From the NCBI RefSeq assembly GCF_050920415.1, contig NZ_CP169309.1: a DNA stretch of 64,000 nt; one strand, 5' to 3'. This document shows positions 4,963 through 5,538 of this stretch, piece by piece (position 1 is the stretch's first letter; the number at the start of each line of letters is the position of its first letter). The position numbers and the translations under genes are program-made. Source of the stretch: Escherichia coli (lineage in GTDB: Bacteria; Pseudomonadota; Gammaproteobacteria; Enterobacterales; Enterobacteriaceae). The notes below the pieces were generated by a model, which did no database searches, was not told the DNA's origin, and saw nothing but the letters and a program-made list of their open reading frames with translations.

Positions 4963-5538
4963 ATGGAATACTTTGATATACGTAAAATGTCGGTGAATCT
5001 GTGGCGAAACGCTGCCGGTGAAACCCGCGAAATCTGTACTTTTCCACCGGCAAAACGTGATTTTTACTGGCGAGCCAGCATTGCATCCATCGCGGCGAAT
5101 GGGGAGTTTTCTTTGTTTCCAGGTATGGAAAGGATAGTGACGTTGCTGGAAGGCGGCGAGATGTTCCTTGAAAGTGCAGACCGCTTTAAACATACCTTAA
5201 AACCGTTACAGCCTTTTGCCTTTGCGGCGGACCAGGTGGTTAAAGCGAAACTGACGGCAGGGCAGATGTCGATGGATTTCAACATCATGACACGCTTGGA
5301 TGTCTGTAAGGCGAAAGTCAGAATTGCCGAACGTACGTTTACTACCTTTGGCTCACGCGGCGGGGTAGTGTTTGTCATTAACGGGGCGTGGCAATTGGGC
5401 GATAAACTGCTCACTACTGACCAGGGAGCGTGCTGGTATGATGGCAAACACACCCTGCGGCTTTTACAACCGCAAGGTAAACTGTTATTCAGTGAAATCA
5501 ACTGGCTCGCTGGTCATTCGCCGGATCAAGTTCAGTAA
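4963..5538 (+). CDS. ves: HutD-family protein Ves
   Basis: Tracked ORF 4900-5538 trimmed to ATG 4963 ([14 protein letters not shown]...), 191 aa; synteny between spy and cho. Confidence 0.85.

Follow-up and report, generated by a model that had tools for sequence, protein, structure and literature searches.

The 41-bp convergent 3' coding overlap of ves and cho in Escherichia coli, its conservation and drift among Enterobacteriaceae, and its probable origin as a by-product of gene arrangement

The window analysed here is a stretch of 64,000 nucleotides of Escherichia coli DNA. In this region it is 100% identical to strain MFDS1022581 and shares about 96% identity with most other E. coli. It carries two convergent neighbours, ves and cho, whose coding sequences run into each other at their 3' ends (Table 1). 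Both are genuine protein-coding genes. Ves matched the NCBIfam Ves equivalog with 424.7 bits (cutoff 292) over residues 1-191 of 191, and a Pfam HutD match covered its residues 9-175; Cho matched the NCBIfam Cho equivalog with 576.6 bits (cutoff 367) over residues 1-287 of 295. Orthologous loci encoding Cho were compared in 80 species-level genomes. The start codon of cho, GTG, was found in 74 of the 77 evaluable Enterobacteriaceae loci, and the GGAG upstream of it was present in most of these 77 loci, a GGAG-like sequence being present in nearly all.

Table 1. Positions of the genes, control sites and RNA features of the ves/cho locus in the window
Feature	Position	Strand	Description and source
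FliA (sigma-28) promoter of ves, TAACGTAAATCACCCGAGTTGCCGATAA	4882-4909	+	Published FliA ChIP-seq site and motif
ves CDS, HutD-family protein Ves	4963-5538	+	ATG start, TAA stop at 5536-5538, 191 aa; ORF list, PGAP
p19-captured RNase III duplex inside ves	5088-5109		389-410 nt beyond cho stop; exact match in window (PMC7373196 Table S3)
p19-captured RNase III duplex inside ves	5376-5396		102-122 nt beyond cho stop; 2 substitutions in window strain (PMC7373196 Table S3)
11-bp hairpin, not a canonical terminator, inside ves CDS	5451-5479	-	Fold of the cho strand, about 18 nt after cho stop
Shared 3' coding region of ves and cho, 41 bp	5498-5538	both	Sequence and direct translation
cho CDS, excinuclease Cho	5498-6385	-	GTG start at 6385-6383, TGA stop at 5500-5498, 295 aa; ORF list, PGAP
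p19-captured RNase III duplex inside cho	5705-5725		167-187 nt beyond ves stop; 2 substitutions in window strain (PMC7373196 Table S3)
Shine-Dalgarno GGAG of cho	6392-6395	-	Read from sequence
LexA (SOS) box of cho, CACTGGATAGATAACCAGCA	6399-6418	-	20-mer read on the cho strand
Sigma-70 promoter motif TTGTCA-15-TTTAAT in the nadE-cho spacer	6435-6461	-	Published motif, located in the sequence by eye

The 41-bp overlap had been proposed in an earlier note made from the sequence of the window, and we found the sequence, the ORF list and RefSeq to agree on it. From each gene, the shared region takes in the stop codon, the 12 complete sense codons before it and 2 nt of a 13th codon. In it, 12 residues of Ves, preceded by an isoleucine whose codon enters only in part, (I)+12, are encoded opposite the corresponding (I)+12 residues of Cho. 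Codon positions 1, 2 and 3 of Ves face positions 1, 3 and 2 of Cho in this phase. The description of the shared DNA as the last 13 codons of both genes is therefore correct if the stop codon is counted. The further claim that full-length ves and cho mRNAs are antisense to each other over their 3' ends follows directly from the sequence, which makes a complementarity of at least 41 nt obligatory. The RefSeq/PGAP annotations of the identical strain and of K-12 (b1741/b1742) contain the same 41-bp overlap, and the K-12 41-mer is identical to that of the window. Thus, ves and cho are a convergent overlapping gene pair that displays all the defining features tested.

The overlap is a stable property of the species. 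Of 5426 complete E. coli genomes, 5387 contained a 67-nt segment with both stop codons. In all 12 rows sampled down the ranking, this segment was annotated with both genes, and the 41-bp overlap was kept in two low-identity E. coli rows of that sample, including the lowest one. The comparison of both stop codons across strains, which the earlier note had called for, gave a clear result: each is the first in-frame stop of its gene, and its position is kept across Escherichia and Citrobacter. Because the two stops are the first in frame and conserved, an earlier true stop of either gene is excluded. We thus rule out an annotation artefact, in which one of the genes would truly end earlier and the coding sequences would not overlap, and give it virtually no probability. 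It is true that the family models leave the C-terminal 8 residues of Cho and 16 residues of Ves unaligned, and that both tails are variable among genera. However, both stop codons were read directly, and each is the first in its frame, where an ORF ends; moreover, even if the tails were as short as the shortest ones of other genera, the two genes would still overlap by 4-23 nt, and a 3' overlap is unaffected by the choice of start codon.

In a further step, the control regions of the two genes were examined. A LexA core of the form CTGG-N8-CCAG (CTGGTTATCTATCCAG) was found at 6401-6416, at -31 to -16 from the GTG start of cho, exactly where the earlier note had placed a variant LexA box. The position of this element is conserved: CTG-N10-CAG was observed at -29 to -34, mostly at -30 or -31, from the cho start in 77 of 77 evaluable Enterobacteriaceae loci. 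As in other members of the SOS regulon, the operator is a palindromic 20-bp CTG-N10-CAG element with an AT-rich spacer at the promoter or 5' end. Compared to the SOS consensus CTGT-N8-ACAG, the E. coli cho box deviates at both inner positions (CTGG...CCAG), whereas many other genera have a more canonical cho box, CTGTAT...ACAG. Taken by themselves, sites of this pattern are not rare: the window contains 25 CTG-N10-CAG sites and 5 CTGG-N8-CCAG sites, 0.73 of the latter being expected. Among the 25 sites, the cho box was tied second, with 14 of 20 consensus positions matched, and the best match lies upstream of ydjM, another SOS gene. In the literature, cho (ydjQ) is given under "Known SOS box" in a review that cites surveys of 2000-2001 (PMC6590174), and Salmonella ydjQ was induced 3.33-fold by nalidixic acid, while a gfp fusion after the ydjQ stop codon gave no detectable fluorescence (PMC8072944). 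Hence cho is a known SOS-regulon gene, for which the conservation of the operator was observed here and the inducibility is taken from the literature. The sigma-70 motif given in Table 1 was assigned to the nadE>cho spacer by RpoD genomic SELEX (PMC3946193). A search for known RNA families in the region returned none above the curated threshold at the ves/cho overlap, the sole match above it being ES036 in the nadE-cho spacer.

The control of ves is of a different kind. Its FliA promoter is the only match in the window to the FliA pattern at no more than one mismatch, and coincides with a published FliA ChIP-seq site; in the two RNA-level columns of that study, the expression of ves was given as 18 versus 0 (PMC4183435). 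We conclude that ves is a low-level, FliA-dependent gene.

We then investigated how the junction varies among Enterobacteriaceae. Adjacent convergent cho and ves genes were found in 60 loci, including K-12 and the window, out of the 80 species-level loci encoding Cho. The coding sequences overlap in 55 of these 60 loci, by 4, 7, 10, 15, 23, 32, 41 or 45 nt and in three phase relationships. The 41-nt overlap is found in all Escherichia and in 11 of 12 Citrobacter loci; overlaps of 23 or 32 nt are found in Enterobacter, Lelliottia, Leclercia and Silvania, of 4, 7 or 15 nt in Kosakonia, Phytobacter and others, of 10 nt in Franconibacter, and of 45 nt in two loci. The remaining five loci have gaps of 3-48 nt, and three of the four larger gaps, of 28 and 46 nt, contain GC-rich palindromes. 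Among Enterobacteriaceae, the spacer-less cho/ves junction is old, but the length of its overlap is not fixed.

Salmonella, Klebsiella, Raoultella, Citrobacter sedlakii and some others have no ves gene at this locus. At most loci that lack it, cho converges on spy over a spacer of 78-198 nt that contains a strong hairpin in most cases; spy lies about 2.8 kb away in 2 of the 6 Klebsiella loci with enough flanking sequence, and two other loci have no spy. Tails of cho that are as long or longer occur at loci without ves, and the cho frame of Pluralibacter extends about 70 nt into spy.

The conserved core of Cho ends in ...EIIEL and that of Ves in ...WLPGH, with variable tails beyond. In nucleotide alignments, the TAA of ves lies opposite the Cho codons for E-I-T/I-E-L, and the TGA of cho lies opposite the Ves codons for S-E-I-N. 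Since each stop is thereby placed in the antisense of a conserved motif of the partner, the conserved end of either protein is encoded, within the overlap, opposite the partner's tail, which is poorly constrained. In Enterobacter-like genera, including Lelliottia and Leclercia, the ves stop follows directly after ...WLPGH. This stop is missing in Escherichia and Citrobacter, and Ves is therefore extended by 6 residues (SPDQVQ), which lengthens the overlap by 18 nt, from 23 to 41 nt. Loss of a stop codon with 3' extension has been described as the origin of convergent overlaps (PMC2716372, PMC4161906), and ves/cho conforms to that description with no essential difference.

The pattern of substitution in the shared region was then quantified as nucleotide diversity in 16 related Escherichia and Citrobacter sequences, with 13-14 sites per class. 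At sites that are position 2 for ves and position 3 for cho, the diversity was 0.093 in the overlap, 0.033 for ves only and 0.468 for cho only. At sites that are position 3 for ves and position 2 for cho, it was 0.287 in the overlap, 0.432 for ves only and 0.08 for cho only. Substitutions in the overlap thus follow the Ves frame, which indicates that the tail of Cho is relaxed and weakly constrained.

Bidirectional intrinsic terminators and programmed collision of RNA polymerases at convergent genes have reportedly been described by Ju et al. in 2019. As in such systems (Wang et al., bioRxiv 2022.10.23.513370), convergent polymerases on ves and cho must meet head-on. However, ves/cho lacks a hairpin with flanking A and U tracts between the genes, whereas genera with a gap or without ves have strong palindromes at this place. 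A bidirectional intrinsic terminator was ruled out on these grounds, since there is neither intergenic DNA nor a hairpin flanked by A and U tracts. A consensus scan detected no terminator-like site at or near the overlap, and in folds of both strands, none of the hairpins downstream of the ves or the cho stop had a U tract after it. Scan and folds thus agree that no effective terminator lies between the partners, a feature by which excludons are recognized.

The RNA downstream of each stop codon would be untranslated and antisense to the other gene; over hundreds of nucleotides its C/G ratio is 1.3-2.8, a rut-like composition. Consistent with this composition, a Rho termination region was reported on the cho strand, with its peak 270 nt into cho, a score of 3.87 and p = 2.5e-7; this score was computed over 800-nt windows, and part of it may come from read-through of nadE, which lies upstream in the same direction, and not from transcripts of the cho promoter (PMC7815308). 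The Term-seq tables of the same study place one Rho-dependent 3' end 24 nt inside cho and also contain the spy terminator. Moreover, double-stranded RNA cleavage products captured with p19 are known for this locus. We mapped the duplex sites of Huang et al. (PMC7373196) to K-12 and to the window and found that they lie in both gene bodies, well beyond the stop codon of the partner (Table 1). Such duplexes have been reported at most genes, and the antisense RNAs behind them could stem from internal promoters and not from read-through. Taken as published, the Rho, RNase III and excludon data agree with read-through at the ves/cho junction. The situation resembles the known suppression of antisense transcription by Rho and the clearance of double-stranded RNA by RNase III, with untranslated RNA richer in C than in G, a bicyclomycin-sensitive region and p19 duplexes. 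It differs in that the action of Rho on ves read-through is suggested by base composition, whereas that on the cho strand is backed by published evidence.

We consider it likely that the overlap is a by-product of a spacer-less tail-to-tail junction and not a dedicated switch, and that mutual interference between the two genes is most likely a small side effect. According to this model, the 41 bp would be the Escherichia/Citrobacter state of an old spacer-less junction. Each frame runs into the partner because no intergenic DNA separates cho and ves, and would continue up to a stop that happens to lie antisense to the partner's conserved C-terminal motif, while stop-codon shifts and small indels would change the length of the overlap. 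As the junction offers no space for an intrinsic terminator, transcription of each gene would enter the other and yield untranslated antisense RNA rich in C. Such read-through RNA would mainly be ended by Rho, and the resulting sense/antisense pairs would be cut by RNase III, as the published duplexes suggest. Independently of these events, cho would be repressed by LexA via the conserved promoter box, and ves would be driven by its FliA promoter. We thus infer a neutral origin and a weak regulatory consequence of the overlap.

The main alternative is regulatory. The earlier note had suggested that SOS induction of cho might interfere with ves expression, and an antisense interplay between the two genes is plausible, although not new. 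The concept of the excludon is said to go back to Sesto et al. in 2013. In the RNA-seq-based map produced with ExcludonFinder, "cho-ves" is listed among 165 convergent excludons of E. coli MG1655 and belongs to the core excludome, defined as the pairs found in at least 50% of 58 MG1655 transcriptomes (PMC12288877). As a functional excludon, the overlap and the lack of a terminator would be maintained in order that transcription of each gene lowers the other: cho raised by the SOS response would reduce ves through polymerase collision and RNase III, and ves driven by FliA or cold would reduce Cho in undamaged motile cells. The obligatory complementarity of the mRNAs, the missing terminator, the place in the core excludome, the RNase III duplexes in both gene bodies (PMC7373196), the independent and condition-specific promoters (LexA for cho, FliA for ves) and the persistence of an overlap in 55 of 60 adjacent pairs all fit this idea. 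This persistence may mean selection for transcript overlap and not inertia, and a higher synteny than that of other neighbours has been reported for excludon pairs, which as a class also show less single-cell co-expression. However, inverse expression is what defines an excludon, and cho-ves was placed in this class by the criterion of transcript overlap. We found no report of inverse expression of cho and ves, the pairs highlighted under ciprofloxacin being others (PMC12288877), and our searches of the accessible literature on ydjR, and on ves together with SOS genes, gave no report of cho induction altering ves expression. A classical excludon, moreover, has a long regulated transcript that spans the neighbour and starts from one strong promoter, whereas the promoters of cho and ves are both weak. 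The expression of cho is low, with the modest 3.3-fold induction and the absence of a gfp signal after the stop codon in Salmonella (PMC8072944); the Rho termination region on the cho strand lies inside cho itself (PMC7815308); and the read numbers of ves are low (PMC4183435). Furthermore, the same LexA box is kept at cho in Salmonella, Klebsiella and Raoultella, where ves is absent, neither the length nor the phase of the overlap is conserved, and p19 duplexes are reported at most genes.

The more often the stronger of two promoters fires, the greater the interference by collision, and two weak promoters such as those of cho and ves should therefore interfere little. To our knowledge, no functional link between Ves and excision repair exists. 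Since both genes are poorly expressed, an effect of the SOS response on ves is probably weak at most, as judged from indirect evidence. This indirect evidence (weak cho, Rho, low ves, a LexA box without ves, drift in length) leads us to regard the by-product as the likely explanation and a functional excludon as unlikely. A more elaborate form of the same idea appears improbable to us: here cho-ves would be a conditional excludon that couples DNA damage to a sigma-28/cold-stress gene, in which cleavage of LexA would release terminator-free cho read-through that shuts off Ves by collision and RNase III, FliA-driven ves would hold down the back-up nuclease Cho in motile cells without DNA damage, and the junction seen in 55 of 60 loci would have been selected for this cross-talk. 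It is also very doubtful that the hairpin downstream of the cho stop is a selected RNA element embedded in ves codons, be it a terminator poor in U, a stem-loop that positions collisions or a stabilizer of the cho mRNA 3' end. On the cho strand, the region folds better than shuffled sequences (z = -2.76), and its 11-bp stem reaches about -20 kcal/mol; it is the strongest downstream structure in 3 of 4 other Escherichia loci and in an E. coli-like MAG contig, and stem-loops have been reported to position head-on polymerase collisions between convergent genes. Yet it is not the strongest structure elsewhere, including the remaining Escherichia locus, and the sequence of its arms differs in Citrobacter, which has the same 41-bp overlap. 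In K-12, the tail after the stem is GUGCCUGCC, without a U tract; the tables of Adams et al. (PMC7815308) give no Term-seq 3' end at the hairpin or at the cho and ves 3' ends, and the TERMITe supplements have no entry for cho or ves. The RNase III duplexes farther downstream imply that transcription passes the hairpin. In addition, the stem encodes the conserved Ves residues TLRLL, and its sequence may thus be conserved for the protein alone.

With the by-product of a spacer-less junction as the preferred reading, the overlap matters little beyond bookkeeping. It is already present in the standard K-12 annotation; the LexA box of cho is listed as a known SOS box (PMC6590174), and the overlap of the transcripts is catalogued in the 2025 E. 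coli excludon map (PMC12288877). The regulatory idea is a reasonable, already catalogued and unproven possibility; if an excludon were real, it would provide the first regulatory link of the poorly understood Ves to the SOS response. An overlapping architecture by itself is no evidence of regulation. What the comparison adds is a clear case of the formation and drift of a convergent overlap: the antisense of the partner's conserved motif supplies each stop, only the presumably dispensable tails are dual-coded, and the length changes via stop shifts. Convergent overlaps of coding sequences are ordinary in E. coli, in which 75 such pairs have been counted (PMC4161906). Seven convergent pairs occur in the first 50 kb of the window; ves/cho is the only one with an overlap of coding sequences, and the other six are tightly packed, with gaps of +3 to +56 nt.

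Past the 3' end of cho, a hairpin was predicted on the cho strand, beginning approximately 18 nt beyond the stop codon and lying inside ves codons (coordinates of features in the window are collected in the table). In a per-locus comparison of predicted hairpins, this structure ranked top in Escherichia-type loci only. No U tract follows it in K-12.

Among the retrieved cho loci, that of Pluralibacter gergoviae (L053) has no ves, and its cho frame, about 40 codons longer, therefore runs over the 3' end of spy by approximately 70 nt (about 3944-4014 of that locus). Independently of the overlap with ves, cho has here come to overlap a neighbor through a stop shift. 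Of the four loci with 28-48 nt between the stops of the two genes, three (L048, L055, and L066) carry a perfect GC-rich palindrome in this gap (for example, CTGAACCGGCAGGCGATTGCCGGTTCAG in L048); the palindrome may be an inserted element, either REP-like or a bidirectional terminator. In the pig isolate E. coli HCP4S3_I4 (L085, 3699-5017), an inserted prophage region, which opens with Mom and Com genes, truncates cho; ves and the 41-bp overlap are intact.

A sigma-28 (FliA) promoter motif precedes ves and was the sole FliA-pattern match with no more than one mismatch when the whole window was scanned; it matches a published FliA ChIP-seq site for ves (PMC4183435). Upstream of the cho promoter, the spacer between nadE and cho contains an Rfam match to ES036 that was barely over the curated threshold (38.9 versus 37.6 bits). 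Together with the neighboring naRNA4/REP-like match, it is probably part of a REP-type palindrome at the 3' end of nadE.

The best LexA-box-like site of the window is located directly upstream of ydjM (18896-19486, minus strand), a gene treated in the literature as SOS regulated (PMC8072944). The pattern CTGG-N8-CCAG occurred 5 times in the window, compared to 0.73 times expected from shuffles, and this excess probably reflects E. coli oligonucleotide bias. Apart from the site of cho, the occurrences have GC-rich spacers and are unlike LexA boxes.

Two further convergent pairs in the window almost abut. One of them, the selO pair, is also present, as ydiE-selO, in the published list of E. coli convergent excludons (PMC12288877).

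Features in the window outside the cho-ves overlap
Feature	Position	Strand	Remarks
FliA motif TAACGTAAATCACCCGAGTTGCCGATAA	4882-4909	+	~55 nt upstream of ves start
Predicted hairpin	5451-5479	-	11 bp, ~-20 kcal/mol
ES036 (CssrF) sRNA match and weak naRNA4/REP-like match	6493-6535 and 6539-6575	- and +	nadE-cho spacer
LexA-box-like site AACTGTCGATACGTACAGTA	19501-19520		15/20 consensus positions
CTGG-N8-CCAG other than cho's	190, 17442, 27186, 51970
ydjO/tcyP, convergent	17368/17372		3-nt gap
selO/hemP, convergent	39875/39879		3-nt gap
ShET2/EspL2-family type III secretion effector toxin gene	24695-26593	-	between yniD and thrS

Finally, the region at 4800-6600 showed approximately 95-96% identity to nearly all of the 5425 E. 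coli genomes, only 2 of which were at least 99% identical over it. For core genes, such divergence is unusually high; it points to a rare allele or a rare lineage. Elsewhere in the window, the effector toxin gene appears to be an accessory insertion amid otherwise core DNA.
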